A DNA stretch of 64,000 bases. It comes from a virus. Each line of letters opens with the position of its first letter. The stretch's first letter is position 1. The stretch lies in IMG/VR virus record IMGVR_UViG_3300043395_003024, positions 81,205-145,204 of that record. One strand, given 5' to 3'. The position numbers were made by a program, and so were the translations under genes. The notes beneath the pieces are model-generated. The model was not told the DNA's origin. It saw only the letters and a list, made by a program, of their open reading frames with translations, and made no database searches. Positions 17,655 to 52,360 of the stretch are shown here, piece by piece.

Positions 17655-18331
17655 AAATAGGTTTTATCAAAAATGCATTCGGCAACATGCCGCATGCTGT
17701 GGCGACAGAGGCCGATGGGAAGATTGAAGTAAAGTCAATAACTGAATTTGGCAAGTCAATAATCAACAATTTTGATTTTGATAAAGACAACATATCGAGT
17801 ACTTTGCCGGAAGGATTCGTGTTTACGGGCTTTACGGAAAAAGCCATTCCAGCAGAATTTGAACAATCGCCAGACCATGTCAAAACAAAATCACTTGCAT
17901 ATTCCTGTTCATTTACTGCAGAGCAAATCGGCAAAAAATCAGCAGTTTCTAACATTTCAATCAACAAATTTACAAACAGCGCCGACAAATTAAATGCAAT
18001 TTCATTTAAGGCATCAGCCTTTAAGTCATCAAGCAGACGTGGGGAATTTTTGGCCAGAATAAGTTCTAAAAAAATCTTGTTCGACCAGAGGCTTGCGCGT
18101 GTTTCTAATAACCCCAAATTTGCATTCAGCCATCTGGAAGAAGAGGGTTTAAAGAGTTATTTCAGTGACGGGTTCATGAGAAAGACTGCTCAAAAAACAA
18201 CGCTGAATCGCCGTGCGGCTAGGCGTGCTCGCGTTCTTTCGAGTATGAACGAAGAAGAAAAATCAAAGCCAAAGAAAAACATACTTTCACGTATTAACAC
18301 AGCTCGTAAGGATGTTAAAAATGGCCGCTAA
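17651..18331 (+). CDS. Hypothetical protein, head cluster
   Basis: 226 aa ORF, ATGA-coupled. Confidence 0.65.
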   Translation: MKIGFIKNAFGNMPHAVATEADGKIEVKSITEFGKSIINNFDFDKDNISSTLPEGFVFTGFTEKAIPAEFEQSPDHVKTKSLAYSCSFTAEQIGKKSAVSNISINKFTNSADKLNAISFKASAFKSSSRRGEFLARISSKKILFDQRLARVSNNPKFAFSHLEEEGLKSYFSDGFMRKTAQKTTLNRRAARRARVLSSMNEEEKSKPKKNILSRINTARKDVKNGR

Positions 18332-18977
18332 AAAAGAAGCAGTTAAAAAAGCAGATGCGCTGCGTCTAGCGAAGGAAATTGGATGCTCTGGTGCGCACAA
18401 AGATAAAAAGGGAAATTGGATGCCATGCGCATCTATGGAAGAGCTTGAAAGAATATCTAATGTTGCGGAAACATCAAAGTGGCGCAGTGTTGTACCTGGG
18501 TACAAATCGTCAAAGGTAAGAACAAAGGGCAAAAACAAAAGGCGTCGTGATGATTGGGAAAACCTCAGGGAGGCACCAATCAGAGGTATTGCAACCCTGG
18601 AGGACGGAAGCATAGTTTCTTCACCATCTCTAAGTGGTAAATCACTTGACTGCTGTGGAACAAAGGGGATTGGTCCTGAATTCGTGAGGGACAATGACCC
18701 TGACGTGTTCATGGACGCTGAATCCGCGAGATTTAGGTCTCGGCAGCTTGGGTGCATAGGCATAAGCAGGCGAGTCAGCAAATCTGGAAGAACCGTCTGG
18801 ATGCCATGCACCAATATGAGCGACTACGCAAATAGGGCGGGGTCTACTGATTTAGGCCGCAGAAATATGAATAAGCGGCGTGAAAACGAGACTAGACAGG
18901 CCGTGCGTACAGTCCTGCGCGAAAAGCCAAAAGCAACTCTTAAAAGAAAAACATCTCTTGCCAAAGAGCTGCTTTAA
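18312..18977 (+). CDS. Basic protein with two GCxG...WMPC repeats
   Basis: EIGCSGAHKDKKGNWMPC and QLGCIGISRRVSKSGRTVWMPC; true start may be 18321. Confidence 0.7.
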   Translation: MLKMAAKKEAVKKADALRLAKEIGCSGAHKDKKGNWMPCASMEELERISNVAETSKWRSVVPGYKSSKVRTKGKNKRRRDDWENLREAPIRGIATLEDGSIVSSPSLSGKSLDCCGTKGIGPEFVRDNDPDVFMDAESARFRSRQLGCIGISRRVSKSGRTVWMPCTNMSDYANRAGSTDLGRRNMNKRRENETRQAVRTVLREKPKATLKRKTSLAKELL

Positions 18978-20497: not shown

Positions 20498-20514
20498 TAG
20501 AGGCTGAGTAGTGG

Positions 20515-20564
20515 GGTAACCCCCGGGAGTAATCGCTCAATGCGGTGAAACCGGGGGTTTTACC
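20515..20564 (+). terminator. Hairpin after the capsid gene, probable terminator
   Basis: AACCCCCGG / CCGGGGGTT stem followed by a T-rich tract; long internal loop. Confidence 0.5.
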
Positions 20565-27682: not shown

Positions 27683-29526
27683 TGACAACAGTTCCATCAG
27701 AAGAAACAGAAAATTTTCTCGGCCTGCTTGACGGCGTCAGAAGAGCTGGCTCTGGCTGGGTGGCGCGTTGTCCGTGCAGAAATGACGACTCAAATCCATC
27801 GCTTTCCGTCGGGCAAGGAGCAGATGGCCGAGTCCTTGTTACGTGTCATCGTGGAATGTCCTGCAATGTCGAGGAAATATGTGCGGCTGTTGGTCTTAGC
27901 GTCGCTGACTTGATGCCTAAGAAAGACGATTTTGAACAGACATACAAAACCGACCATAGGCCGCCACCGGCACCAAAAAAGACAGAGCAAAAACATGTAA
28001 CGCCAAAGCAGGTTGAGCCACCAAAAAAACAAACACTTGTAGCCACATATGACTACACGGATGAAAACGGCGTGCTTCTTTTCCAAAAACTGCGATACGT
28101 AGATGAAGACGGAAAGAAAACGTTTCGCCAGCGCAAACCAGACGGGAAAGGCGGATGGGAATACAGTCTTGGTGACGTGCCAAAAGTCCTATACAACTTG
28201 CCAGCTGTTATTTCTGCCAAAACATATAACGCTCCAGTGTGGGTTGTAGAGGGGGAGAAAGATGCAGACACCCTCATAGAGGCTGGATTTATCGCAACGA
28301 CAATGCCAGGCGGAGCTGGGAAATGGCTAGATATCCACACGGAACCACTCGCTGGAAGTCTTGTTGAAATAGTTGCAGACAATGATGAAGTCGGAATCAA
28401 GCATGCTCTTGATGTTCAACAAAAACTAAATGAAGCTGGCTGTGATGCGCAGGTATGGATTTGCCCATCGCACAAAGACATCACAGACCATCTTTCATCA
28501 GGTAAATCCATCGATGAACTTCTTGCCTACGAAGAGCACGCAGAAACATATTCTGCGAACGTTTCTGAAGATGGTTTTAGCGATATTGAGCCAGCAGTAC
28601 ACCGAATTGACGATGAGGCGTCCCCAGAAGGGCTTGCGCTTTTAAAGTTACAGGAGCTGTTAGAGCGCGACGACCTCAATACAAAACAGAAAATTGCAAA
28701 AAGCAATCTCATCCTCTCAACAGCAACTGTGTCATTTACTCTTGATACAGGCCGACTGGTTCATTGGAATGATTTTCTTAAAGAAACAGACGGCGACTCG
28801 TACGAATGGGCAATACCAGGACTAATTGAGAGAGGCGAAAGAGTGATTGTTGTTGCCGCCGAAGGTGTCGGCAAGACAATGCTCGCTAGGCAAGTAGCAC
28901 TCCTGTCTGCCGCCGGAATCCATCCGTTCTCGTTTCAGCCGATGAATCCAATCAAGACACTTACGGTAGACCTTGAAAACCCTGACAGAATTATTCGCCG
29001 AACTGGACGCTCAATCGCGATGCAGGCAATGGCTCATGCCCGGGTTTCAAGACTGAACGCAGAACTACTAACACGCCCATCAGGAATGGACCTGCTTAAA
29101 GCTTCGGATAGGGCAATTCTCGAGGATACCCTCGACAGGGTTAAGCCAGAGTTACTAGTGATTGGGCCTCTTTACAAGGCGTTTCTTGACCCAGGCGGAA
29201 GAACGTCTGAATCAATTGCGCTAGAGGTTGCAAAATACCTTGACACCATTAGAACCATCTACAAGTGCGCCCTATGGATTGAACATCACGCTCCACTGGG
29301 AACCAGCATGACGAGCAGAGACCTTCGGCCCTTTGGTTCGGCAGTCTGGTCGCGCTGGCCAGAATTCGGTATTTCCCTTCAGCCAGACCCCACGGCCCTC
29401 GGGGCATATGTTTACGATGTTCGACATTTCCGTGGTGCTCGTGACGAGCGTCAGTGGCCGACTAAAATGAAAAGAGGCGTCAGATTTCCATTTGAGGTCA
29501 TCGAGTGGTCTAAGGCTGTTAAATGA
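27682..29526 (+). CDS. Primase-helicase (zinc finger, Toprim, RecA-like AAA)
   Basis: CPCRND..CHRG, YDYTDENG, VVEGEKDAD, ADNDEVG, AEGVGKT, DLEN, IEHH, FGS. Confidence 0.88.
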   Translation: MTTVPSEETENFLGLLDGVRRAGSGWVARCPCRNDDSNPSLSVGQGADGRVLVTCHRGMSCNVEEICAAVGLSVADLMPKKDDFEQTYKTDHRPPPAPKKTEQKHVTPKQVEPPKKQTLVATYDYTDENGVLLFQKLRYVDEDGKKTFRQRKPDGKGGWEYSLGDVPKVLYNLPAVISAKTYNAPVWVVEGEKDADTLIEAGFIATTMPGGAGKWLDIHTEPLAGSLVEIVADNDEVGIKHALDVQQKLNEAGCDAQVWICPSHKDITDHLSSGKSIDELLAYEEHAETYSANVSEDGFSDIEPAVHRIDDEASPEGLALLKLQELLERDDLNTKQKIAKSNLILSTATVSFTLDTGRLVHWNDFLKETDGDSYEWAIPGLIERGERVIVVAAEGVGKTMLARQVALLSAAGIHPFSFQPMNPIKTLTVDLENPDRIIRRTGRSIAMQAMAHARVSRLNAELLTRPSGMDLLKASDRAILEDTLDRVKPELLVIGPLYKAFLDPGGRTSESIALEVAKYLDTIRTIYKCALWIEHHAPLGTSMTSRDLRPFGSAVWSRWPEFGISLQPDPTALGAYVYDVRHFRGARDERQWPTKMKRGVRFPFEVIEWSKAVK

Positions 29527-30191
29527 GCGACGAAAAATCAAAACCGATTACTACTAAAGAGTTTCTCAACGAGAGAGACATGCGTATTTTCAAGATGCGC
29601 CAGGCCGGTACGTCTGTCAATGAGATAGCCAGAAGATTCGGCATCTCAACATCGTCTGTTTCACGCTCAATTCAGCGTCAACTGGAAAAGATGAATAAGG
29701 AAGCCATCCTGGCCTACCCAGAGGTGCTCAGAATGGAGTTGGAGCGCCTAGACAACCTCCAGCAGGCTATTTGGCCCATGACGCAGCACAGGCGCGTTGT
29801 AATGGACGACGGTACAGAGATGCAGGTAGAACCAGACCTGAAAGCAATCCAGCAGGTGCTCTCAATTATGGACAGAAGAACGAAACTTCTTGGCATGGAG
29901 CAAACAAATGTCAATGTAAATATTGACGGGAATATCAACTCTCAGGTTCGCGCAACAATTGCTGGCCAGCCTGGAGTTACGACGCCGGCGTCTGGTTTTG
30001 ACGCTGAATCTGAAGCTAAAAAGCTGCTTGAACTCATGGCGATTTCTGGCGTATTGCCGGAGGAAACTGTTTCTTCAATTCTTCGGAAACATCAAGAAGA
30101 TGAAGGTTTGATAATTGATGCTGAAGTAGTATCTGACTCAGAAGAAGAGCCTAGATACAGGGATTTCAGCGACGATGAGCCAGGAAAATAA
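29523..30191 (+). CDS. HTH protein, possible terminase small subunit
   Basis: MRQAGTSVNEIARRFGIS, LERLDNL, IMDRRTKLLG. Confidence 0.6.
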   Translation: MSDEKSKPITTKEFLNERDMRIFKMRQAGTSVNEIARRFGISTSSVSRSIQRQLEKMNKEAILAYPEVLRMELERLDNLQQAIWPMTQHRRVVMDDGTEMQVEPDLKAIQQVLSIMDRRTKLLGMEQTNVNVNIDGNINSQVRATIAGQPGVTTPASGFDAESEAKKLLELMAISGVLPEETVSSILRKHQEDEGLIIDAEVVSDSEEEPRYRDFSDDEPGK

Positions 30192-30532: not shown

Positions 30533-33500
30533 ATGTCTGCAGATAATCAAGAGTTTCACATTCCCTTTGAGGAATCTCGTCGCGGTGCAAATTCAAGCCC
30601 GGAAAAGAAAGCTGCCCTAGGAAGACTTGGCCGCTATCTTGGCTCAAGAGCTATCGATAGGCCACGAATTGGCGACGGTCACCGTGATAGAAGACGCGGA
30701 AGGGACCATGGATTAAACATAGACCTGCCGACCGGCGGTAGACCGGGAAACAGACGCCCAACCGGTAGCCGCCTAGACCCAGATAATGATGGCTGGGCAG
30801 ACGAGGGGACAACTAAGCCGGTATGGGTTGGCATTGGCGGTGCTGAAAATCGCAATACCCGAGCGTCAGGTACGAGAATGGCGGAAGAGCCAGACACGTC
30901 GAGAACGCTTTCTTCAGGGAAGAAGTATCAGGAGATTGTTGATTCCCAGCCACCCGTGTCTGACGAAAAGAAAAAACTTGCATCTGAGTTTATAGACGAT
31001 ATAAAGCAGGGTGAATTTTTAAAAGAAGACGTATACGAGGAAGAAAAAGGTCCTCGCCCACCACGGCCGCCTGGAATGCCGGAGCCAAAACCGTTAATGG
31101 TAATCCAGGACAATGAAGACAGGAAGCTAGAAAAACAGCGTGTCCGCGATTTGTTGGCTGAGCTTTTTAAAGGTGAAATGACACTTGATGAAGACATTAT
31201 TATTACCACCGACGATGGGAAAAAAATAAATATAGGCAACAGGGTATTGATAGACATTGCTCCTAGCAGTGACTCGAAATACTCTACTTCTGTAAAAGTT
31301 CATAAGGCTAACGATGCGGATATCGCTGATGCCAAAGAGCTATATGGTGATACATTCGAACCGGGCGACATGCTGACCGAGGTTCAGCTTGGGTTTTTGG
31401 TTAGACCGCTTCCAGAGTACGAAAAAGAACTCATCGAATCATTAACGGACGAAAATAAAAAATCATTTCTCTCCTATGAAGATGGACGTTTATCGCTAGC
31501 ACGCGCATATAGAACATATATCAATGTTTCTAATGACGAAAAAAACCTGGGATTAATTTCTCATGATTCATTTTATGTTCTTGGCATGGCTCAGGGCCAG
31601 GGGATAGGTTCGGCGTTTAATGCCAGAAATGAAAAACTATATAACGAGCTTGATGTTGCTTCGATATATACACACGGCCATTCAGGCAAGGGGGCACGCG
31701 GCGCTGTCCATTGGCCCAAGAATGGATTTACGTGGGCTGGAGAAAACGACAAACAGAAGTTCTTATCGATAATCGACAAGGCCATCACGGAGCAACCAGA
31801 AATATTCTCTGCGGAAGATAAAAAGAAAATATCTTCTCTATATAGAAAAAATCCAGATACTGGGCTTTTTGAAACAGAAGCAACAGCCGAGGAGCTTGTC
31901 GACTTCCCCGCCGCATATGAAGTATTTGCGGATGAAGAAGCACAGATAATGTACTCAAGGCCGCTAAAACAGCTCGCAGTGGCATCCTCGGGCCGTCTAT
32001 CGTCCGGCTCAACTAAGCGTAGCTCTCGTGGAGTCCACGTATCAGAGCTGTACGACGGCGACTATGGCACGTGGGAAGAGGGGGCATTGCTCACTCCAGA
32101 ATCACTATACAGACTCATATCTAGAGTGTTTGAAAAAAACGATATAGATGCGTCTTTGCCTAAATACGATGGAGCTCTTGAAAAAATAACTGAGTATAAA
32201 GATTTTGGGTCAGTAATTAATGACTCACTAAGGCTGGGTTACACATTTGATGACCCGCGGTCCCCCAACCTGTACGAATATGCGTCTATGCAGCGGCTCC
32301 TAATGGACAACAGAATAACCGCCGGCATAACGTTGTATAGGTCAATCGCGAATACGCCAGAAATTGCATCGCTTAAAGAGGGTGACACATTTGGCGATAG
32401 GGGCTTCCAGAGCTTTACAGTGATGGCCCCAGGCCAATACTCTGGAATGGGAGACAAAAGGCCAATAGTTCTTCGCTTATTAACAACAAAGAACACGCGT
32501 GGCAGATACATATCTAGACGCCCAAATGACTATAACCTAGAAAACTTTGATACCCGGAAGCCTCTCGACGAAAGATATTTTGGAATAAATGAACACGAAG
32601 TATTGCTGCCTGCTGGTGCAACATACAAGCTGGTTAAGAAGACGCAGACTGATGATGGACGTGAAATCTGGGACGTCAAACTTTCCGGTCAAGGCAAGCT
32701 CAGTTCTGGGGCAAAAGAAGTAGCACTAGATAATGTTGATTCCAATACGCTAAGTAGCGGGAAACCACCACGTCACCCAAGAACGCCAACGCTTGGTGCA
32801 TTTATCGGTACTGCTGATGAAGAATTCGCAGACATAAAATCGTGGGACGAGTTTAAGAAGCTGTACGACGACAAAGAAGTTATATTTTTTGACTATGAAA
32901 CAACCGGATTAGTTTTTGACGAATTCGGGAAAGAGATTAGTAAAGGTGCGCCAGTCCAGTTCGGTGCCGTGAAAATAAAAAACGGCAAAGAGGTCGAAAG
33001 AATAAATCTGTTCATGAATCCTGGAGAGCCACTCGGTGAGTGGTCTAGGAATAATCTCAAAGATAAAGACGGAAATCCACTAACAGATGAATGGCTGGGC
33101 AGCCAGATATCTATAGACGAAGCACATAAGCAGCTGATTGAGTTTGCGGGCCCAGAAGCAATATTTGGCGTTCAGAATGCCACATTTGATAAGGGAGTTC
33201 TTGACGGCGTTCTGGAACAAATGGGTGAAAAGTGGCGCCCATCTGGATACCTGGACACGAGAGAAATAGCTTCCCTAACTCTCCCAAAGTGGACCCCGGA
33301 AACGGATGACGGTCCGTTCATGCTTGACAAAGAAGGAAATAAAAAGCCATCTAGTAGCCTTGCTGCAATAACCGAATATCTCGGAGTAAACCTCGGCGAT
33401 GGCCACCATAACGCTGACTCAGATGCTTTTGCAACAAGCCAAGTAATGCGCCGGATTATTGATGGGGCTATCGAAAAGAATTGGCCGACAGATGCTCTGA

Positions 33501-36500
33501 ATAAACAAAAGCGCGATTCGCTGCATAAGCAAACAGTCGACAAATTTAATGAAGAAGTAGCCCAGTTTGAAAAAGACAAAGCTTCGTATTTCGAATCACT
33601 TTCATCAAATTCTGAGTCGCTTTCATCTGGTCGCAACCGGCCGGTCATTCAAATCAAGCCAACACAGGAACAGAAGCCAACAGAGCCAGGTAAGCGCGCG
33701 GTCAAGGGCTATGGCCAGCCTGATGCATCCGGAAAAGAAGTACGCAGAACCAACACCAAATGGCTAGCTGGGATGACTCCTGACGAAATCGCGCAAGTGG
33801 TTGTCCCAACCAGCGACGAACAGCGTTTTGAAATGTGGGCTGATGACATAGCCGGTGATACTTGGCGCACAAATCGTAAGTGGAGAAAATTCCTAGAAAA
33901 GTATTATTCGGAACTAGGCAAAGCTGACAATTCTCTACCTATTGATTATTCCCCAGAGTCGGTAAAGGCAGCACAAGACCTTGTTCGTGGGCTACTTGAG
34001 TCGTCCCCGCAGATGAGGTGGATGTTCGAGAACCATGGCGCCCCCCTGATAACAGTGTTTTCACGCGAAGCTGTAGATGCTTACGAAAACAACGGGGATA
34101 TGAAACAGCGCATGGAGCAGCTACGGATTCAGCGCGGGGTAGAGAAGACGCCATTCGTTAGTGGGCTCGCAGTGCGCGAATACGGGCTCATTGGATTTAC
34201 ACCGCGAGCAATAATTGATAGGGAGTCGTTAACGACATCCGAAAAGGGCGTATATCCAATTTCACTAAATCCAGACAGGCTCCCAGAACCGCGCGATGCA
34301 CATATGGACAGAAGCCTTGAGGGCACACTAGTGCACGAATATGGCCACTGGCTCCACTATCGCGCCATATGGGATACGGAGACAAATGGGGCATCCGGCA
34401 AGGCGCGTTCGTACTACGGAAATGGCGATTTAAGGGACCCTAAATACACCGCAGCACTCGATGTTGCTGAGGAATATGCAAACCCCGATACGGACAATGA
34501 AGCAATAGAAATATATACGCAGTTTGTTGACCTGACTGGTCGTGACGCCGAGGAAATGTTTAGGGCAAATCCGGACAAAGCGCTAACTGCAACATCTTAT
34601 GGAAATGTCAATAAGCGCGAAGCAATAGCTGAGGCGTTTGTTGCAATAATGCACCCAAACAGAGAAATGGCAAAGCGCGCTTTAAGCAAAAAATTGCGCG
34701 ATGACATTTACACCCTTGCTGGGGTAGATAAAGATGACCTTCCGTGGGATAGACGTGCGGACGGGCGTCCGACAATAAGACTTTCTTCTGGGGCTACGCA
34801 AAAACCAGAGCGCGAGAAGCGCAGGGGACGGATGGCCAGGGCGCTAAGACAGCTCATAGGCGGGGACGAGGCTGCCGAAGAACCAGAGAAGACTCAGGAG
34901 CCATACACATTCGAGGCCCCAGAAAGGCCGGAAGGCCTAGCATCCTTTGCTACAGGACCATCTGAGCGCCTGCGCGCCTCGCTTCCAATACCCTCAGAGG
35001 AGGATTTAACTGCGGAACTAGAACATGACGTGAGGGCAATGATTCTTGACCCAGTTATCGAGGGCCTATCCACACTTGATGTAACAGGGTTTGGCGTAAG
35101 CATGTTTTCATCCGAGGAGGATAGAAAAGCTAGCTCCTCAGCAAAGAGAATGATTGCGTCAAATATTGCAGAAACAGCAAAGATTGAACCGCGTGAATTC
35201 ATTAAATCGTTCTCTGAAGAATCAATTAAAGAAAGCGGTCTAGATTTAGCTGCTCAACGAAGATTTTTCCATGCGGCTGCAAATTTCAGGGCACTAAAAG
35301 GAATATTTGATGCCGTTGACAATCTTCCAGAAAATGCAACTGAAGAAGAAAGGCGTGCTGCCGGAAGGTTTGCTATTGACAGGTCCTCTGGCGCGGTGGT
35401 GTCCGTAGAGAAGCATGACAAAATAATCCAAAAGAGGTTCTGGTTTGACGAAATCATAGATGAGCTGGAAAAACGCTCATACGAGGACCTGTTCGGCGAC
35501 AAATGGAATGAACTAACAAACATTGCGCTAGGCGACGAGAAGTCAATATTGACTCCATACTTGATAACGCGTCTTGGTGGAGACGAAATCAAAAAAGACA
35601 TGCTCAATTTTGGCCTCCAAATAAGGACAATGTTCAACGATTTAATAGCGGAGATGAAGGGCGCTAACGGCGCCGACCGTAAAGACCCGCTAACTGGAAG
35701 ACCATTGAAAGACGGGGATGGATTAGCCCTAATGTTCTCTCCAATGGGCGAGATTGACCCACGCACAGGAAAGCCTGGGATGGCATTGATTTCTAAGGGT
35801 GGCTCAATAAGTGACCAGTACGCAAGGGATTTCAAATCACTTATCCGTGATGGAAAGATTGTTCCAGAGCTAGAAAGAACAGATGAGCAACACAAGGCCT
35901 ACGACAGACTTTACGTAAATTACGGAGCGAAAGATGACTACCTGGAGAGGGTGGCAGCTGCTGGATTATTTGTTGTTGACGCAACAAATGTTGATTCCCC
36001 AGAAACAAAAGAATTATTAAAAAACTTTTTGATAAATAGATTGCGGTTTATTGCCGGCAATGCAGAGGATTATAAAGCGCGTTATGAATACAAGAGCGGT
36101 ATTTCATTTTTCGATATAAATTCTCCGGAAGGGATAAGAGAGGCGCGGTTAGCAATAGTTTCCGACATCATCCATACATGGGCAATTTCTTCCAATAACT
36201 CAAACCCTGTAGCCATGGCAATACAGCACGAAGCACGAAAAATGTTTGGGCTGGACGATGCAGTTGGTTGGTACGGAGGCGTGCGTGGCAAGAGAAATGA
36301 CATTCTCTACGATTCGGCTATACCGATTGAGCGGCGTTCAGAGTTTGGCGACCTTGCTTTTGACGATACCCCAGAACTTAGCGAAAAACAGTCAGAAGTG
36401 ATTCGCTCTGTAGTGAAGGCAATATACGACGCTACGCAGCATTACTACAAGTCAAAAGGAATTACGCATCTTGGTGTATGGCGAGGCATGAAAGCCACGC

Positions 36501-39379
36501 CACAAATGGCAGTCGGAAGAGGAGAGATTGCCGAAAGAGAAGTGGCTATGCGTCCGCTTTCGTCGTGGACAACGAGCAGCACTATGGCCCAGGCTTTTTC
36601 AACATCGCTCGCTGCCGCTAAAAAACCAGGGATAGATGCGCTAGAGGAAGCTCAGGCTGTATTTGATTCAAACGTCCTCATGAAGGCATACATTCCTGTA
36701 GAACAAATATTCTCAAACCCACTAACCGGATTTGGCTGCCTCGGAGAGGACGAGGTTGTAGTGCTTGGTCGTCCAACAAAGACGTTGATGATTACTCCTC
36801 CGGCTAATTTCCTTCCGGAAATGCCATCTGATGGCGAAGGGACGGAAGGTGCTCGCGAAGTCATCCAACAAACACTTGATATTGCTACAAACAGAGACAA
36901 GATTACAAACGCCGCATATAGGGAATTGCGTAGGACGGGATTTGACAAATTCAGCAGTGGTCCAACGCGTAATGATTCAGAAAGACTTTCGTCAGGCGCC
37001 AGACTGTCCCAGGTCACGGAAAAACTACCGATAGAGGGAGAGCTTAGCGTAGCTGAAACGACCGGAGAAACGGAAGGTGGCATATCCAAGATTGCATTTG
37101 GAAAAAGAATTGCCGCAGTACTTGAAAAGACACTTGGAATTACTCTCGATGACTATCAGAGAAAAACAATTCAAGATATAATGCCAAATCTTCTTAAAGC
37201 GCTGAACAAAAGAAGGCTTCAGGAAGTGAAGCCACACCCCGCGTTCAGTGATACAGGAAGACAATTACTAGACTCAATATCGATAAGCATCGCTGCAGAC
37301 GGTATACCCTTCGTGTCGGCTGACCCAATCCCGCAGATAGCGGAACACATACCAAAGAAAATTGATTGGAGAACAGTGGAACTTCCTTCGCGTAGTTCGT
37401 TGCTTCCAATCCTTGACAGGGCAGTGGCCGGTTCGCTGTTGTTTGACGACGAAAAGAAAGAATGGTTAGATGTTTTGGGCAACGCTGTTGCAAGACAAGC
37501 TTCAGTAAATGGTGAATCAGTTCTCCAATATGTAGACGAAGCGGCAAAAGCTAAATTCCCACTTTTGGAAGCTATAGCACCAAAGGGTTATGTACTACCA
37601 TCCGACGCAATAGGGAATAGCGCCCTCCAGCGTGATGTGCTGCCCGGGATATATGGCGAAGCATGGCGTAAACACAGCGAATTTATGATGGAGCTGGCTG
37701 CAAAAGCTGGCGCAGCGATGGGTGACAATTCCCTGTTTGATGGAACGAAAAACAGAAGAGATTCCAGTTCTTTTGTTGAGTCGTACGTCGGAGGAATAGA
37801 GGACCCTATCTACTTCAATATGGGCCTATCTGGAAAGGCGCTTCAGGCCCTCCACGACCTATTCGGACACCTTGGTACTGGCCGCGCATTTGACAGACAC
37901 GGAGAATGGGCAAATGACATTGCCATGATGTCAATGGCGGACCACCCCGACTCTCCGCTATCCGACTTAGAGAAGCTTGCTGTAAAGCATTTGCACTTCC
38001 AGTTATATGCAGCAAGAAGACTTGGACGCTCACGGCGAGATGATTCTGGCGACCCCGGCTTCATACATGCAGTGACGGATACGTTTGGTATAAGGGATGG
38101 CGAGCTCAGGGGGAGGCGGGTTTCGCTTGTTTATGCAGGCGACTTCCGAACGGCAGCCGAGGAGATGGAGAGGGTCTCGATTAACAACAAGCTGTCATCA
38201 GGCAGAAAGAAAATTCAAGATGCGTCAAAAGACGATATAGAGCTAGCCGTAGCCCAGGACATTATCGGCCATAGTGAATCACGAGCCAGGCGATTCAAGC
38301 CAAGCAAATCAACTCGCTTATCTTCTGGGAAGGTTATTAAATATAACCTGATTGAAGCGCGCATGAAGGCCAGCGATATGAGGATTACTTTCAATCGTGA
38401 CCCGGAGAGAGTTGCCGCGGTGAAAGCAACGCTCACCAAGGGCTTTATGGGCGGCTTTACCGTCGAAGTCGACAGGATGGATGACATAAAAGAAGGTATA
38501 GCCATAGCCAGAAATAAGCACGGCATGAAAGTTGACGCCGTAGCAGATTTTGACGCTGAAGGTAATCCGTCTGACGAGCTAGTAGAAACCTTCTTGTCAT
38601 GGATGGACTTCCATGGGCCTAAAACGTTTGCAAACCCAAAGCAGGGGGCAGACAAAACAACAATCGGCGGATGGGTTTCCGATGGGACAGTCTACCTTGA
38701 TGTTGTTGACGTTTATCCAAACAATGAAGAGAACCTTTCCAGGGCTGCCGACATGGGGCTCCAGGAAGACCAAATAGCCGTAACCGACCTGAACAAGCTT
38801 TGGGAATTGCTTGGACGAAATGAAGACCCAAGCCCTGCATTTATTGACTCTGGTGGCACTGGTGGATTCACCCTAGACGAGGAGTCGGTAAGAAAAGTTA
38901 GTGCCGCACTGAGCGAACTTAAGTCAAACAAGTTCAATACTGGCTCTTCGCATCTCAAACGAATTGGTAACACCAGGAAATTTACCGAGGGCCCAATAAC
39001 TGGAGCTCGTAGGGTCAGGAATACAGATTTATCCACAGGTGAAACCAATGATTACTGGGTAATTTCCGGAGCGGACGGAATGGTAAAAGTATTTACGCAT
39101 GAACAGTACATCAAGGTAAGGGACGGAAAAATACAGGGCCTATTTGACAAAATGTCAAATCCTTCTGACATTCTCAGAAGCATGTTCGAGGCTGAGAAGT
39201 TGAAGCCAGCGGCCACGATGTCTTTCGGAAGTAGGCGTACGGTTGGCAAGCCGACGATATCCAAGGAGCATAAGGGTCGCGGTCTGGCTGCGGCGATGGC
39301 AAATCTATATGGATTTGCAAATGGCCTAAATAATGTCGGAGTTCAAATGGGCGACAAGGTTGTCGCGGCTATGGCGTGA
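30533..39379 (+). CDS. Giant multidomain protein, 2948 aa: GNAT, ADP-ribosyltransferase, DEDDh exonuclease, HExxH zincin, second ART-like, HDxxGH domain and C-terminal domain, separated by 10 (L/F)SSG motifs
   Basis: QGQGIGS; LYRS..GFQSFT..EHEVLLP; FFDYETTG..NATFD..HNADSD; HEYGH..EAIAE; VWRG..LSSWTT..EDEVVV; HDLFGH; own TGGTATTAT promoter-like site at 30516. Confidence 0.82.
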   Translation: MSADNQEFHIPFEESRRGANSSPEKKAALGRLGRYLGSRAIDRPRIGDGHRDRRRGRDHGLNIDLPTGGRPGNRRPTGSRLDPDNDGWADEGTTKPVWVGIGGAENRNTRASGTRMAEEPDTSRTLSSGKKYQEIVDSQPPVSDEKKKLASEFIDDIKQGEFLKEDVYEEEKGPRPPRPPGMPEPKPLMVIQDNEDRKLEKQRVRDLLAELFKGEMTLDEDIIITTDDGKKINIGNRVLIDIAPSSDSKYSTSVKVHKANDADIADAKELYGDTFEPGDMLTEVQLGFLVRPLPEYEKELIESLTDENKKSFLSYEDGRLSLARAYRTYINVSNDEKNLGLISHDSFYVLGMAQGQGIGSAFNARNEKLYNELDVASIYTHGHSGKGARGAVHWPKNGFTWAGENDKQKFLSIIDKAITEQPEIFSAEDKKKISSLYRKNPDTGLFETEATAEELVDFPAAYEVFADEEAQIMYSRPLKQLAVASSGRLSSGSTKRSSRGVHVSELYDGDYGTWEEGALLTPESLYRLISRVFEKNDIDASLPKYDGALEKITEYKDFGSVINDSLRLGYTFDDPRSPNLYEYASMQRLLMDNRITAGITLYRSIANTPEIASLKEGDTFGDRGFQSFTVMAPGQYSGMGDKRPIVLRLLTTKNTRGRYISRRPNDYNLENFDTRKPLDERYFGINEHEVLLPAGATYKLVKKTQTDDGREIWDVKLSGQGKLSSGAKEVALDNVDSNTLSSGKPPRHPRTPTLGAFIGTADEEFADIKSWDEFKKLYDDKEVIFFDYETTGLVFDEFGKEISKGAPVQFGAVKIKNGKEVERINLFMNPGEPLGEWSRNNLKDKDGNPLTDEWLGSQISIDEAHKQLIEFAGPEAIFGVQNATFDKGVLDGVLEQMGEKWRPSGYLDTREIASLTLPKWTPETDDGPFMLDKEGNKKPSSSLAAITEYLGVNLGDGHHNADSDAFATSQVMRRIIDGAIEKNWPTDALNKQKRDSLHKQTVDKFNEEVAQFEKDKASYFESLSSNSESLSSGRNRPVIQIKPTQEQKPTEPGKRAVKGYGQPDASGKEVRRTNTKWLAGMTPDEIAQVVVPTSDEQRFEMWADDIAGDTWRTNRKWRKFLEKYYSELGKADNSLPIDYSPESVKAAQDLVRGLLESSPQMRWMFENHGAPLITVFSREAVDAYENNGDMKQRMEQLRIQRGVEKTPFVSGLAVREYGLIGFTPRAIIDRESLTTSEKGVYPISLNPDRLPEPRDAHMDRSLEGTLVHEYGHWLHYRAIWDTETNGASGKARSYYGNGDLRDPKYTAALDVAEEYANPDTDNEAIEIYTQFVDLTGRDAEEMFRANPDKALTATSYGNVNKREAIAEAFVAIMHPNREMAKRALSKKLRDDIYTLAGVDKDDLPWDRRADGRPTIRLSSGATQKPEREKRRGRMARALRQLIGGDEAAEEPEKTQEPYTFEAPERPEGLASFATGPSERLRASLPIPSEEDLTAELEHDVRAMILDPVIEGLSTLDVTGFGVSMFSSEEDRKASSSAKRMIASNIAETAKIEPREFIKSFSEESIKESGLDLAAQRRFFHAAANFRALKGIFDAVDNLPENATEEERRAAGRFAIDRSSGAVVSVEKHDKIIQKRFWFDEIIDELEKRSYEDLFGDKWNELTNIALGDEKSILTPYLITRLGGDEIKKDMLNFGLQIRTMFNDLIAEMKGANGADRKDPLTGRPLKDGDGLALMFSPMGEIDPRTGKPGMALISKGGSISDQYARDFKSLIRDGKIVPELERTDEQHKAYDRLYVNYGAKDDYLERVAAAGLFVVDATNVDSPETKELLKNFLINRLRFIAGNAEDYKARYEYKSGISFFDINSPEGIREARLAIVSDIIHTWAISSNNSNPVAMAIQHEARKMFGLDDAVGWYGGVRGKRNDILYDSAIPIERRSEFGDLAFDDTPELSEKQSEVIRSVVKAIYDATQHYYKSKGITHLGVWRGMKATPQMAVGRGEIAEREVAMRPLSSWTTSSTMAQAFSTSLAAAKKPGIDALEEAQAVFDSNVLMKAYIPVEQIFSNPLTGFGCLGEDEVVVLGRPTKTLMITPPANFLPEMPSDGEGTEGAREVIQQTLDIATNRDKITNAAYRELRRTGFDKFSSGPTRNDSERLSSGARLSQVTEKLPIEGELSVAETTGETEGGISKIAFGKRIAAVLEKTLGITLDDYQRKTIQDIMPNLLKALNKRRLQEVKPHPAFSDTGRQLLDSISISIAADGIPFVSADPIPQIAEHIPKKIDWRTVELPSRSSLLPILDRAVAGSLLFDDEKKEWLDVLGNAVARQASVNGESVLQYVDEAAKAKFPLLEAIAPKGYVLPSDAIGNSALQRDVLPGIYGEAWRKHSEFMMELAAKAGAAMGDNSLFDGTKNRRDSSSFVESYVGGIEDPIYFNMGLSGKALQALHDLFGHLGTGRAFDRHGEWANDIAMMSMADHPDSPLSDLEKLAVKHLHFQLYAARRLGRSRRDDSGDPGFIHAVTDTFGIRDGELRGRRVSLVYAGDFRTAAEEMERVSINNKLSSGRKKIQDASKDDIELAVAQDIIGHSESRARRFKPSKSTRLSSGKVIKYNLIEARMKASDMRITFNRDPERVAAVKATLTKGFMGGFTVEVDRMDDIKEGIAIARNKHGMKVDAVADFDAEGNPSDELVETFLSWMDFHGPKTFANPKQGADKTTIGGWVSDGTVYLDVVDVYPNNEENLSRAADMGLQEDQIAVTDLNKLWELLGRNEDPSPAFIDSGGTGGFTLDEESVRKVSAALSELKSNKFNTGSSHLKRIGNTRKFTEGPITGARRVRNTDLSTGETNDYWVISGADGMVKVFTHEQYIKVRDGKIQGLFDKMSNPSDILRSMFEAEKLKPAATMSFGSRRTVGKPTISKEHKGRGLAAAMANLYGFANGLNNVGVQMGDKVVAAMA

Positions 39380-48219: not shown

Positions 48220-48927
48220 TTGGGGAACCTGATTGAAGTAATGCCGGAAACTGGCGGTTTTGTCAGGCTTGACGCTCATATGGCCGACGATATGTCTGTA
48301 GTGAATGCAGCACGTGTATCTTTCGCTCAGCATTCGTCGGAGCTGCACGATGAGCTTTCCGGCAAAGATAAGGGGCTTGTCGGTTTCCTGATGAGGGAGC
48401 GGCACGGAACGCCGTTTGAGCACAACGCATTTAGATTCCACATCAAGTGCCCGCTCTTTGTCGCCCGCGAGTGGTTCCGTCATAGAATCGGCTCGTTCAA
48501 TGAATTTTCTGCACGGTACTCGGAGGTGCCCGACGAGTTTCACGTTCCCAAAGAGGAGCACATACGTACCCAGATTGGCAAGCCGGGAGCATACACATTC
48601 GAAATTCTTGACAAACGTGATGCGCGCGTATCGATGGCGATGACAGCAATTAATTCAAATAACATTGCGTCATACAGGCTTTATCGCGACATGATTGAGT
48701 CAGGTATTGCTAAAGAAGTTGCACGCATGGTTCTCCCTGTTTCCATGTTTACGCAGTTCTACTGGACAGTAAATGCTCGGGCATTGATGAATTTCCTATC
48801 TCTCCGTACAGACATAAATGCACAACTAGAAATCCGCGAATATGCCGCTGCTGTTGAGGAATTGTTCAAAAATACAATGCCGGTTACGTATCAAGCATGG
48901 ATAGACAACGGGAAGGTTGCACCATGA
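48220..48927 (+). CDS. thyX: FAD-dependent thymidylate synthase
   Basis: AARVS, HGTPFEH, RHRIGSFNEFSARY, AQLEIR. Confidence 0.95.
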   Translation: MGNLIEVMPETGGFVRLDAHMADDMSVVNAARVSFAQHSSELHDELSGKDKGLVGFLMRERHGTPFEHNAFRFHIKCPLFVAREWFRHRIGSFNEFSARYSEVPDEFHVPKEEHIRTQIGKPGAYTFEILDKRDARVSMAMTAINSNNIASYRLYRDMIESGIAKEVARMVLPVSMFTQFYWTVNARALMNFLSLRTDINAQLEIREYAAAVEELFKNTMPVTYQAWIDNGKVAP

Positions 48928-49994
48928 GTATCAAGGGTTTGATACTTTCTGGAGGCAACGGTACGCGGCTAAGGCCTATTACCTATACCGGAGCAAAACA
49001 GCTTGTGCCGATTGCAAACAAGCCAATTTTGTTTTACGGCATCGAATCAATGGTTGACGCCGGCATTGTAAATATCGGCATTGTGGTTGGCTCTACCGCA
49101 GATGAAATAAAGACGGCGGTTGGAGACGGCTCAAAGTTCGGAGCACAAGTTACATACATTGAGCAAGCAACACCGCTTGGCCTTGCTCACTGTGTTTCCA
49201 TCTCACGCAATTTTCTTGGCGATGATGATTTCATCATGTACCTTGGCGACAACATGCTGCAGCAGAGCATTCATGAATTTCACGAAATGTTTGCTCACAC
49301 AACAAGTAAGCCATCGGCTTCAATTCTCGTAAAAGAAGTACCTAATCCGGAAAGCTTTGGCGTAGTCGAGCTTGAAAACGGAAAACCAATACGGCTTGTA
49401 GAAAAACCCGATTCTCCAAATTCAAACATGGCAATGGTAGGTGTCTACTTCTTCACGAAAGACATCCATGAAGCAATTCAGAACATCAAAGCATCTCGCA
49501 GGGGAGAGCTTGAGATAACCGACGCAATACAGTGGCTGATTGACGCCGGCAAGAGCGTTACATGCCACACACTCGAAGGATGGTGGCTTGATACGGGTAA
49601 AAAAGACCCGCTGCTTGAATGCAACCGCCTCGTCCTTGACAAGATTGAGCGAAATATTTATGAGAAGTCGCTCAACGAGTTCACTGCGGATGGGCGTGTC
49701 CAGATTGGAAATTCGCAAATCTATAACTCGCGCATTATTGGTCCTGTCGCCATAGGGGATTGGTGCGTCATACGGGATGCATTTATAGGCCCATATACGT
49801 CAATAGGAAATAACTGCATAGTTGAAAATACCGAGGTACAAAACTCAGTACTTTTAGGGAATAATGTTGTTCGTGACGTACCGCGTATTAGCGACTCGCT
49901 TATCGGCAGTGGCGCAAGGATAAGTCGTTCATCTGGAAAGCCGGCAGCACTAAAACTGATGATAAGCGACCAGAGTATTGTGGAGATTGAGTAA
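48924..49994 (+). CDS. rmlA: Glucose-1-phosphate thymidylyltransferase (long form)
   Basis: LSGGNGTRLRPIT..KQLVP, LVEKP, RGELEITD, WLDTG, hexapeptide tail. Confidence 0.92.
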   Translation: MSIKGLILSGGNGTRLRPITYTGAKQLVPIANKPILFYGIESMVDAGIVNIGIVVGSTADEIKTAVGDGSKFGAQVTYIEQATPLGLAHCVSISRNFLGDDDFIMYLGDNMLQQSIHEFHEMFAHTTSKPSASILVKEVPNPESFGVVELENGKPIRLVEKPDSPNSNMAMVGVYFFTKDIHEAIQNIKASRRGELEITDAIQWLIDAGKSVTCHTLEGWWLDTGKKDPLLECNRLVLDKIERNIYEKSLNEFTADGRVQIGNSQIYNSRIIGPVAIGDWCVIRDAFIGPYTSIGNNCIVENTEVQNSVLLGNNVVRDVPRISDSLIGSGARISRSSGKPAALKLMISDQSIVEIE

Positions 49995-50560
49995 TGCCCA
50001 TAATTGAAGAATGCAATGAAATAAAAGACGTTTTGATAGTTAACCCAGATGTACATGGTGACGAAAGGGGCAACTTCATCGAGACATACCGTCGGTCGTG
50101 GTTCCCGCTAGGGCGTGAGATGATACAGGGCAACAGGGGAGACCGAGCTCTAGGTTCTCTCGTAGGGCTTCACTACCATCTACATCAGGCTGATTATTGG
50201 TATGTTCCTTTTGGTATATGCAGAATTGTTTTGCACGACATTCGCGCAGGTTCGCCTACACAGGGAAATACGTATGTAACCGATGTGGGTGATACTAGTT
50301 ATGATGGCTTCGACCACAGAGGAATATTTATCCCGCCAGGCGTAGCGCATGGATTCTTGGCAGTAACAAACATGACGATTACTTACATGGTAGACAGCTA
50401 CTACAACAAAAATGATGAACTTGGCGTCCTCTGGTCGGACCCGGCAATAAAAGCCGACTGGGGAGATGGCGAAAAAATCGTTTCTTCTCGCGATATGGCA
50501 AATCCATTAATTGCCGACATCCCGCAGGCACTGATACCGACATATGGATTACGAACATGA
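49994..50560 (+). CDS. rmlC: dTDP-4-dehydrorhamnose 3,5-epimerase
   Basis: DERGNFIE, GLHYH, DIRAGSPT, IPPGVAHGF, WSDP. Confidence 0.92.
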   Translation: MPIIEECNEIKDVLIVNPDVHGDERGNFIETYRRSWFPLGREMIQGNRGDRALGSLVGLHYHLHQADYWYVPFGICRIVLHDIRAGSPTQGNTYVTDVGDTSYDGFDHRGIFIPPGVAHGFLAVTNMTITYMVDSYYNKNDELGVLWSDPAIKADWGDGEKIVSSRDMANPLIADIPQALIPTYGLRT

Positions 50561-51522
50561 ATAAAGTGCAGTTTGTAACTGGCGGAGCTGGATTTATAGG
50601 CTCTAATTATGTTCGTTATGTATTAGCAAATACTGACGACAGTATTGTTATATACGACTCCCTCACCTATGCCGGCAGAATGCAAACAATGCATGATTTT
50701 CTCGATTCAACTCGAGTTAAATTTATCAAGGGCGATATCTGTGATAAAGATTCATTGCTGTCTGCAATGAAGGGCTCTGATTACGTTGTTCACTTTGCCG
50801 CAGAAAGTCATGTAGACCGCTCAATTGCCCTTTCAGACACATTTGTACGTACCAACTGCCTCGGAACCGATGCAGTAATGGACGTAGCCCGACATGTGGA
50901 CATAGAGCGCATAGTCCACATAGGCACGGATGAGGTATATGGCTCTGTAGAAGTCGGCTCATCGCTAGAGTCAGACCCACTAGAGCCGCGTTCACCATAT
51001 TCGGCGTCAAAGGCTGGTTCTGACCTGCTGGCGCTGGCGCATTACACAACGCATGGGCTCCCAGTTTCTGTTACGAGATGCACCAACAATTTCGGACCAT
51101 ACCAGTTCCCTGAAAAAGCCATTCCGCTGTTTATCACCAATATCTTTCAGGGTAGGAAGATACCCCTGTATGGAGATGGCCTGAATCAGCGCGACTGGAT
51201 ACACGTGGAAGACCACTGCTCTGGCGTATACAAGGTCTTAACTAACGGAAAAGACGGAGAAATTTACAATATCGGCGCCGGGAATGAAACCCCCAATGTC
51301 GAGATTGTCCATATGATTCTCGAGTACATGGAGCTTGAATTCGATGAACATGTCGAATATGTTCCTGACAGAAAAGGCCATGACCGTAGATACTCGGTAA
51401 GTGTGGACAAAATAGCAGCGCTTAATTGGAGAAGAAAACACAACCTTGTCGACGACATCTGGTATGTCATATCTTGGTATAGGTCTAATCGCTGGTGGTG
51501 GGAGCCACTAAAGAATGCCTAA
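50557..51522 (+). CDS. rmlB: dTDP-glucose 4,6-dehydratase
   Basis: GGAGFIG, FAAESHVDRS, TDEVYG, YSASK, NNFGPYQFPEK, GHDRRY. Confidence 0.95.
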   Translation: MNKVQFVTGGAGFIGSNYVRYVLANTDDSIVIYDSLTYAGRMQTMHDFLDSTRVKFIKGDICDKDSLLSAMKGSDYVVHFAAESHVDRSIALSDTFVRTNCLGTDAVMDVARHVDIERIVHIGTDEVYGSVEVGSSLESDPLEPRSPYSASKAGSDLLALAHYTTHGLPVSVTRCTNNFGPYQFPEKAIPLFITNIFQGRKIPLYGDGLNQRDWIHVEDHCSGVYKVLTNGKDGEIYNIGAGNETPNVEIVHMILEYMELEFDEHVEYVPDRKGHDRRYSVSVDKIAALNWRRKHNLVDDIWYVISWYRSNRWWWEPLKNA

Positions 51523-52360
51523 AATTCTCGTCACTGGCGCGACTGGCCAGCTTGGCTCGGAAATTGTCCAACGAGCAGACGAGCATGCATACGAAGTTGT
51601 TGCGCTAAGTCACAAACTTCTCGATATCTGTGATGAAGCAGCGGTTACAGAGGCAATCCACGTCCACGAGCCAACACATATTATTCACTGTGCTGCCTGG
51701 ACGGATGTAGATGCTTGCGAGCGCAATCAAATCAAAGCTGAAAGAATCAACGCTGATGGAACAAGGTACATAGTCCTGGCGGCTGGCGATGTTGGTGCCC
51801 ATGTCACGTACATATCCACGGACTACATCTTTGACGGTAAGAAAGAATCTCCATACGAAGAGTACGACTCACCATCACCGTTGTCGGCGTACGGTCTCAC
51901 GAAACTCCAGGGAGAAACGTGCATGCGCCCGACAGATGCCATTATTCGCGTCTCTTCCGTATGCGGAAAGACCGGAAAAAACATTCTCAAAACAATTTTA
52001 AAAATAGCCAAAGAATCGTCGGAGCTTTCATTCGTTGATGACCAGTTCAGCAACCCGACTTTTGCAGATGACGCATCGTTGAAAATACTTGAGCTCGCAA
52101 TCAATAACAGCGGCGGCATTTGGCACGTCACGAACCAGGGCTCCACGTCATGGTACGACTTTGCCAAGAATGTTATAGATTTCGCCGGCATCGACGTACC
52201 TATAAATCCTATAAAAAGCGCAACAATCCGCAACCAGCGACCCGCAATACGCCCACTCAACTCAATTCTCCGCAATAAAAGAATGGAGGACAGTGGATTA
52301 GAACTCCTAGACCACCATCTCGTACCTATGGAGCGCCTAGTACGTCAATTACTAGCTTGA
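51515..52360 (+). CDS. rmlD: dTDP-4-dehydrorhamnose reductase
   Basis: GATGQLG, AAWTDVD, ISTDYIFDG, YGLTK, DDQ..PT. Confidence 0.93.
   Translation: MPKILVTGATGQLGSEIVQRADEHAYEVVALSHKLLDICDEAAVTEAIHVHEPTHIIHCAAWTDVDACERNQIKAERINADGTRYIVLAAGDVGAHVTYISTDYIFDGKKESPYEEYDSPSPLSAYGLTKLQGETCMRPTDAIIRVSSVCGKTGKNILKTILKIAKESSELSFVDDQFSNPTFADDASLKILELAINNSGGIWHVTNQGSTSWYDFAKNVIDFAGIDVPINPIKSATIRNQRPAIRPLNSILRNKRMEDSGLELLDHHLVPMERLVRQLLA

Follow-up and report, generated by a model that had tools for sequence, protein, structure and literature searches.

What does a phage gain from a protein of 2948 residues in which the same four residues, LSSG, recur nine times? The question is raised by PP3, a giant protein encoded in the last 64 kb (64,000 nucleotides, positions 81,205 to 145,204; hereafter the window) of the viral record IMGVR_UViG_3300043395_003024, a single contig of 145,204 bp that originates from a freshwater metagenome. 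As far as sequence comparisons allow us to judge, PP3 is probably a capsid-targeted polyprotein that is cut at [LF]SSG into separate effectors by the prohead protease of the phage. Several biochemically unrelated effector domains are united in this one polypeptide, among them an exonuclease of the RNase_T family, an ADP-ribosyltransferase (ART), a zincin resembling anthrax lethal factor (LF) and further modules, and the LSSG-type sites lie at the borders between them. A preliminary description of the window had already read positions 30533-39379 as one open reading frame (ORF) of 2948 codons holding an exchangeable array of host-takeover enzymes; the ORF is indeed uninterrupted, and the segment borders drawn at that time agree with ours within a few codons. 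Phages and conjugative elements are known to encode giant proteins, termed polyvalent proteins, that unite 2-15 unrelated effector domains (ARTs, GNATs, nucleases, zincins); these were predicted to accompany the DNA and to be freed by embedded peptidases, and were likened to the polyproteins of RNA viruses (Iyer, Burroughs, Anand, de Souza, Aravind 2017, PMC5512222).

PP3 has nine copies of LSSG, whereas 2000 shufflings of its sequence gave 0.09 on average and never more than 2. One further site, FSSG at residue 2140, fits the family consensus, phenylalanine being the second commonest residue at that position. A search over 5.8 billion clustered proteins recovered 78 giant homologues, 1.7-4.7 thousand residues long and mostly with 5-17 LSSG each, and over 640 distinct homologue sites the context reads [S/G-rich]-[RK]-[LF]-S-S-G-[KAR]. 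Two other candidates in PP3, ASSG 484 and RSSG 1617, are off this consensus and were dropped as sites; relatives have no site at the position of RSSG 1617. LSSG is also present in PP1 and PP2, two giant proteins of the same phage, and at the 19 sites of the three giant ORFs nearly every leucine codon is used and serine is encoded by both TCN and AGY. Because the site codons vary, conservation is at the level of the peptide, and the conserved unit, as judged from codon usage, is thus the peptide and not a DNA recombination signal. A literature search for LSSG in a phage context gave nothing related. A stray RLSSG at 20504-20515, in the same frame and immediately behind the capsid gene's two stop codons, falls in no ORF and was taken as chance. 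One homologue of 1743 residues (P0054) terminates exactly in LSSG, a hint that each module carries the motif at its own C-terminal end.

We regard cleavage at the motif as quite probable. The motif could also remain uncut, being a conserved linker, docking or modification motif that marks permissive joints for shuffling within a giant protein that works intact, like the N4 virion RNA polymerase (vRNAP) or DarB. Some polyvalent proteins do stay whole (N4 vRNAP, ArdC and TraC1), and serine-rich linkers containing glycine are common. Yet an exact four-residue motif, with varied codons at hundreds of sites, is far more specific than a linker needs to be. Paired sites that lie 12-42 residues apart in PP3, where cutting at both would free short spacers only, make little sense for a linker, and the replacement of the whole set of words in other lineages, described below, points to recognition by a co-evolving partner. 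That the motif serves an intact protein seems to us, on balance, improbable.

The evidence that the sites delimit exchangeable units comes from the homologues. All of them were cut at xSSG and the resulting segments were clustered at a mutual coverage of at least 60%, which gives PP3 the module string 3-4-33-2-1-54-5-7-55-8 (the modules are hereafter called M3, M4 and so on). As many as 78 different module architectures were found in 79 proteins. M2 (the exonuclease) precedes M1 (the zincin) in 36 proteins and follows it in 15, and M7 precedes M1 in 17 and follows it in 4; the chain usually ends in M8 or M10, with M8 in last place in 17 homologues. When whole, uncut proteins were aligned with BLAST, 32% of the alignment ends fell within 5 residues of an xSSG versus 3.8% of random positions, and the median distance from break point to xSSG was 12.5 residues versus 87.5 for random positions; the BLAST pairs are not independent, and these break-point figures are a description that carries no P value. 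A fixed module order with break points unrelated to LSSG, which the preliminary description had named as the finding that would contradict a cassette array, was looked for: the order varies and the break points cluster at xSSG.

The clearest single case is offered by the closest relative (locus L002, protein P0002). Its ART cassette M33 is 98% identical to that of PP3 at the amino-acid level and 95% at the nucleotide level, with 54-56% identity in the flanking modules and 76-89% elsewhere. High identity extends over residues ~477 to 746, from one site pair to the next, which implies that the ART cassette was exchanged recently between xSSG borders. The same relative carries an extra insert of 111 residues directly behind a site and ending in LASG. 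Cassettes found in other relatives include true GNATs, pentapeptide-repeat domains, helix-turn-helix (HTH) arrays and NUDIX domains. By these comparisons, modules have been exchanged, dropped and rearranged at LSSG-type joints among related phages. Because every module has its own standard joint, recombination could add, drop or swap cassettes harmlessly. A chimeric assembly or a long non-coding ORF can practically be discounted as the source of PP3: the ORF is intact and has several Pfam and profile matches, full-length homologues are found on many independent contigs of 130-165 kb, and contigs at least 99% identical are present in runs of other studies. A stretch at 30668-31669 that was uncovered in one sample could not be read as a cassette difference, the contigs of the four freshwater or river runs being short and of low depth. 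Among 50,697 GenBank phage records no megablast match was found, and tblastn gave generic exonuclease matches only.

Several of the enzymes could be identified. M2 matches Pfam RNase_T (PF00929) at residues 784-971 with 32.6 bits, above the curated cut-off of 24, and also phrog_192; its translation shows Exo I DYETTG (DxE), Exo II NATFD (D) and Exo III HNADSD (Hx4D), so that the DEDDh exonuclease recognized earlier from these motifs is confirmed. M33 of PP3 itself has no PF03496 match at E <= 1. The 67%-identical module of the homologue P0009 passes PF03496 (ADPrib_exo_Tox) with E 1.3e-9 and 38.2 bits against a cut-off of 23.4, and in a 5-row alignment the catalytic residues R, S-x-[ST] and E-x-E show no variation; the first of the two predicted ART domains, the R-S-E one, thus holds by way of its homologous module and the catalytic residues. 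For M1, a zincin had been proposed from HEYGH and EAIAE, and a 22-sequence profile now confirms it as LF-like. Residues H235, E236, H239, E330 and E334 are invariant in the 22-row alignment, Y323 is kept in at least 90% of the rows, and in the profile HExxH and the ..TSYG..E..AE.. helix line up with the catalytic domain of LF (2l0r, E 0.004). The Pfam family ATLF (MEROPS M34) itself gives no match in PP3.

Other assignments are less firm. The C-terminus of M5 (residues ~1925-2110), in which a second ART-like domain had been seen, carries an R / S-x-T / ExE pattern, and its nearest protein-language-model cluster is DRAT (PF07357; score 0.95, 184 shared features), but no Pfam, PDB or hhalign match was obtained, so that the likeness stands at the level of language-model features and not of profile or structure. 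An AlphaFold 2 model of M5 built from a 5-row alignment reached a pLDDT of 50 and was left unused. M4 is possibly a GNAT, perhaps a divergent one, at residues 130-487. The motifs QGQGIGS and HWPKNGF on which this proposal was based are accompanied by weak hints from profiles: the M4 profile meets PDB acetyltransferases at E 0.77 and 1.4, two of 11 members match Acetyltransf_1 (best E 0.039) and one Acetyltransf_7 (E 0.0059), and 20% of the members of the Atlas lead carry PF00583. Alignment of M4 to true GNAT modules by hhalign gave 6%. Local hhalign between module profiles was set aside as uninformative, since two true GNAT modules reach only 54% with each other. No stand-alone homologue of M4 was found among proteins of 196-627 residues. 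The GNAT-like HKGRGLA reported near the C-terminus of PP3 did not receive support, as none of the five members of M8 has a Pfam or PDB match, in what is a shallow alignment. PDB profile searches with M5, M7 and M8 returned nothing significant.

Among 1.84 billion representative proteins, M7, the HDLFGH domain, was met in no more than 47 clusters, nearly all of which are giant proteins. Its fold was predicted from a 19-row alignment with a pLDDT of 85.7 and a pTM of 0.86, and the domain that had been noted from its motif is therefore both conserved and confidently modelled. As the model shows a compact domain, at least one of the segments appears to fold independently, as had been supposed for all of them. 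Searches for structural neighbours returned no convincing one: in the PDB the Foldseek TM score was at most 0.17 and the VIA-align Z at most 4.4, limited to the N-terminal helices, and in the ESM Atlas the TM score was at most 0.27; the best BFVD row, which is weak (E 0.043), is a giant protein annotated as MuF 'head morphogenesis'. These failed searches do not prove a new fold. Residues H286, H291, D299, R300, H301 and E303 are invariant and D287 is present in at least 90% of the rows, and together they look like a metal site. A metagenome scan with the M7 alignment confirmed only three loci. Polyproteins of other lineages (loci L067, L068, L070 and L071) were seen to contain two or three tandem M7 copies each.

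How would such a protein reach the capsid? Here the leader M3 and the protein PP1 are informative. A hidden Markov model of the leader matches, in this genome, only PP3 1-129 and PP1 553-587 (E 2.7e-7). In seven PP1-type relatives the matches lie at ~548-640 (E 1e-30 to 1e-34), in every case immediately ahead of the first LSSG. PP1 contains Peptidase_S78 (HK97-type prohead protease) at residues 32-175, ArdC-N at 804-895, MPTase-PolyVal at 953-1076 and a UvrD-type helicase, together with four LSSG sites and one LASG, and its relatives pair S78 with 12-14 LSSG sites. By this homology, PP3 starts with the piece that sits behind the protease domain in PP1. Shortly ahead of the window are a terminase and a portal gene, the latter directly followed by PP1, and both PP1 and PP2 are located between the portal and capsid genes. 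The simplest reading of the shared leader is that of a procapsid-targeting module that would be removed at the first site, by analogy with the T4 capsid-targeting sequence. PP2 has nearly no recognisable domain, only a weak Mor-like match near residue 2080; a VSSG at its residue 42 may mark a short propeptide.

From these elements we propose the following scheme. PP3 would be a string of independently folding effector modules on exposed linkers that carry [RK]-[LF]-S-S-G-[KAR], in the order leader, possible GNAT, ADP-ribosyltransferase, DEDDh exonuclease, LF-like zinc peptidase, a large module ending in the second ART-like domain, a new HD..H..DRHGE domain and a C-terminal module. The leader would bring PP3 into the procapsid. 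There the S78 protease, the first module of PP1, would cut PP1, PP2 and PP3 at the motif, with the scissile bond after L-S-S if the analogy with assemblin-fold proteases holds. Once freed, the enzymes would be ejected alongside the DNA, to act on the host's proteins and nucleic acids, the host being likely an actinobacterium. We hold packaging of PP3 in the capsid to be likely, and for S78 as the cutting enzyme the balance tips slightly in favour. An action on host proteins or nucleic acids at entry, which the preliminary description had also put forward, is what the enzyme types and the leader homology lead us to infer. The known distribution of WhiB points to actinobacteria, and the WhiB gene of this phage suggests an actinobacterial host.

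A number of observations weigh against this scheme. The major capsid protein, a classical substrate of prohead proteases, has no LSSG site. PP3 is encoded among replication genes and 10 kb beyond the capsid gene, as the preliminary description had correctly placed it, after genes for ribonucleotide reductase, WhiB, a primase/helicase and an HTH/sigma-r4-like protein and before that for a single-stranded DNA-binding protein; this synteny is kept in two distant relatives and would fit early or middle expression. A protein of 1604 residues encoded outside the window (genome 56024-60856, minus strand; locus L065 25-4839) carries KLSSGR at residue 42, and if this site of a non-head protein is real, a protease confined to the prohead might fail to account for it. 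Processing may instead be due to one of two zincins, the MPTase-PolyVal of PP1 or the LF-like M1 of PP3. The array is not fully free, as part of its backbone is conserved: M1 precedes M5 without exception (35:0), and the M3 leader, present at the start of 42 of the 79 proteins, always takes first place. Moreover, the phage is known from metagenomes alone and was read at gene level. As a separate observation, the 1604-residue protein has a second site, ALSSGG at 586, and is without any PHROG match.

Part of this would fit a cytoplasmic polyprotein, made together with the replication proteins and processed inside the infected cell by M1 or by PP1's MPTase, a polyprotein whose enzymes act in the same infection and are never packaged. 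The conserved place of PP3 among replication genes and the consensus site in the non-head 1604-residue protein speak for it, as does M1 being the most widespread module (58 of 79 proteins), and embedded metallopeptidases have been proposed as processing enzymes by Iyer et al. (PMC5512222). The leader's only homology, however, is to the segment joined to the prohead protease, and PP1 and PP2, which have the same sites, sit between the portal and capsid genes. Furthermore, the polyproteins of other lineages have their own punctuation yet no M1, sharing the exonuclease only, and the best, albeit weak, structural row for M7 is a giant head-morphogenesis protein of the MuF type. We consider processing and action in the cytoplasm alone to be unlikely. 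With regard to expression, the promoter-like site that had been attributed to PP3 was not recovered: a sigma-70 scan found no plus-strand site just upstream of the gene, and the promoter count was below the shuffle mean. The gene at 29523-30191, two ORFs upstream of PP3, encodes a sigma-70 region 4 / GerE / Mor-like HTH protein, and could be a transcription activator that times the expression of PP3. No RNA run with this phage was found among public runs.

The case for capsid delivery after processing by the prohead protease is extended by distant members of the superfamily. Those without LSSG carry recurrent words of their own at similar spacing, namely FSSG, [DE]GFAS.G, GLAS.S, GMRS/GMSS, GLRS, GSKS, LSGSM, PVLKHG and GPSPKEE (P0042-48, P0064, P0066-68, P0070, P0071 and P0079; loci L066-L073). 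Many of these words have a common core, hydrophobic-small-Ser, which would recall assemblin-fold proteases, T4 gp21 among them, with their hydrophobic P3 and small P1. Replacement of the words is the outcome expected of co-evolving protease-site pairs, should the sites be cut as proposed. Tentatively, and with somewhat more doubt than assent, we extend the proposal to large freshwater actinophage-like viruses in general. These may use a 'punctuated polyprotein' code in which cleavage words proper to each lineage (LSSG, FSSG, GFAS, GLAS, GMxS, PVLKHG, GPSPKEE) co-evolve with a prohead protease which itself opens a polyprotein as its first module. A combinatorial arsenal drawn from more than 100 module families, including domains without known fold such as M7, would be delivered by the capsid, and cassettes would be swapped freely at standard joints.

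PP3 and its companions resemble the polyvalent proteins in that PP3 is multi-effector and PP1 has the signature domains ArdC-N and MPTase-PolyVal; no PolyVal-specific Pfam domain was found in PP3 at E <= 1. Unlike the polyvalent proteins, a fixed joint peptide is present here at each border, is common to three proteins and is replaced as a set in other lineages, and no cleavage motif is defined in the sections of PMC5512222 consulted. A second new element is the prohead protease fused to one polyprotein, PP1, together with the shared leader, and a third is direct evidence of cassette exchange at the joints. Finally, in contrast to phage-class polyvalent proteins, PP3 lies among replication genes and not among virion or packaging genes, with PP1 and PP2 in the head module.

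A second group for comparison is the cargo of prohead proteases. T4 gp21 cleaves at I/L-x-E (PMC12991175), and the ejection proteins of SPN3US are cut by its prohead protease (PMC10052503, PMC7411985). Like T4 IPI-III and Alt with gp21, and the ejection proteins of phiKZ and SPN3US with gp175/gp245, our system would combine a protease and a short recurring motif with head-internal proteins that are ejected later (PMC12991175, PMC10052503, PMC7411985). A removed N-terminal targeting peptide is a further likeness, and Alt is itself a packaged ART (PMC12991175, PMC5512222). At gene level, two of these features are present here: the phage encodes a prohead protease, and the leader is shared with the post-protease segment of PP1. 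The T4, phiKZ and SPN3US proteins are, unlike PP3, separate gene products each losing a propeptide and not a chain of at least eight enzymes; here, too, a different motif is present, and the protease belongs to family S78 rather than to S77 or the phiKZ type.

With the polyproteins of RNA viruses that infect eukaryotes PP3 has in common one ORF, a protease site repeated at the junctions of functional units and a co-variation of site and protease across lineages, which is here predicted. It is unlike them in belonging to a double-stranded DNA phage with otherwise ordinary genes, in that its modules are accessory effectors and do not form a replication or structural core, and in its highly variable order. 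Polymorphic toxin fusions of the MuF / SPP1 gp7 type are head-packaged carriers with a swappable C-terminal toxin, and the weak BFVD likeness of M7 is to a protein of this kind, but no MuF domain was detected here, and PP3 carries many cassettes in place of a single toxin at the C-terminus. Should the motif prove to be cleaved, this would be the first phage effector system with a processing rule that can be read from sequence. Product boundaries would become predictable for hundreds of giant 'dark' metagenome proteins, and the processing predicted in 2017 for polyvalent proteins becomes directly testable with one protease and one peptide. The cassette families also constitute a list of candidates for host takeover and counter-defence, comprising ARTs, the LF-like peptidase, exonucleases, GNATs, pentapeptide-repeat proteins and new folds, and swapping at standard joints would show how viral arsenals can evolve modularly.

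Table 1. Features of the window discussed in the text, with positions numbered from its first nucleotide; residues are those of PP3.
Feature	Start	End	Strand	Residues	Remarks
PP1, C-terminal part	1	5262	+		full PP1 2943 aa, starting 3.6 kb before the window (locus L005 4636-13467)
PP2	7007	14482	+		2491 aa, 5 LSSG sites, head module
Major capsid protein	19139	20497	+		HK97 fold family
PP3 (P0001)	30533	39379	+		one intact ORF of 2948 aa; 78 homologue clusters
M3, leader	30533	30919	+	1-129	conserved, RLGRYLGSRAIDRP..., DxDGDGWADEG; stops at first LSSG
LSSG site 1	30908	30919	+		TLSSGK
M4	30920	32008	+	130-492	giant proteins only; possible divergent GNAT, C-terminal half (QGQGIGS)
LSSG site 2	31997	32008	+		RLSSGS
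M33	32009	32710	+	493-726	R-S-E ADP-ribosyltransferase cassette (LYRS, FQSFT, EHEVLL)
LSSG site 3	32699	32710	+		KLSSGA
Spacer, 17 aa	32711	32761	+		between two LSSG sites
LSSG site 4	32750	32761	+		TLSSGK
M2	32762	33631	+	744-1033	DEDDh (RNase T / DnaQ-like) 3'-5' exonuclease; PF00929, phrog_192
LSSG site 5	33620	33631	+		SLSSGR
M1	33632	34792	+	1034-1420	anthrax-LF-like gluzincin (HEYGH, TSYG, EAIAE)
LSSG site 6	34781	34792	+		RLSSGA
M54+M5	34793	36961	+	1421-2143	N-terminal part without assignment, then C-terminal ART-like domain
ART-like domain of M5	~36305	~36862	+		VWRG, SSWTT, EDEVVV
FSSG site	36950	36961	+		KFSSGP
Spacer, 12 aa	36962	36997	+		between FSSG and LSSG
LSSG site 7	36986	36997	+		RLSSGA
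M7	36998	38203	+	2156-2557	HDLFGH...DRHGEWAN domain, modelled with confidence
LSSG site 8	38192	38203	+		KLSSGR
M55, spacer, 42 aa	38204	38329	+		between two LSSG sites
LSSG site 9	38318	38329	+		RLSSGK
M8	38330	39379	+	2600-2948	C-terminal module, function without assignment

A few other features of the contig deserve mention. The protein encoded at 18312-18977, just upstream of the capsid gene, contains DUF3721, a domain that is also found upstream of a polyprotein gene in another lineage (L070 1-100); this protein is a possible scaffold or partner. The ends of the contig (window 54000-64000 and genome 1-10000) have a GC content of 55-60% versus ~47% elsewhere and encode DUF932 and SNF2-type helicase proteins as well as proteins without assignment. 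No terminal overlap of the contig was found, and the GC-rich ends may be early regions of the phage or flanking DNA. Sugar-nucleotide genes, including an NDP-sugar dehydratase/epimerase, occupy 48897-52360, and relatives add an NTP_transferase and a dTDP-sugar isomerase; they are followed at 52352-53569 by a gene encoding a two-domain transglycosylase.

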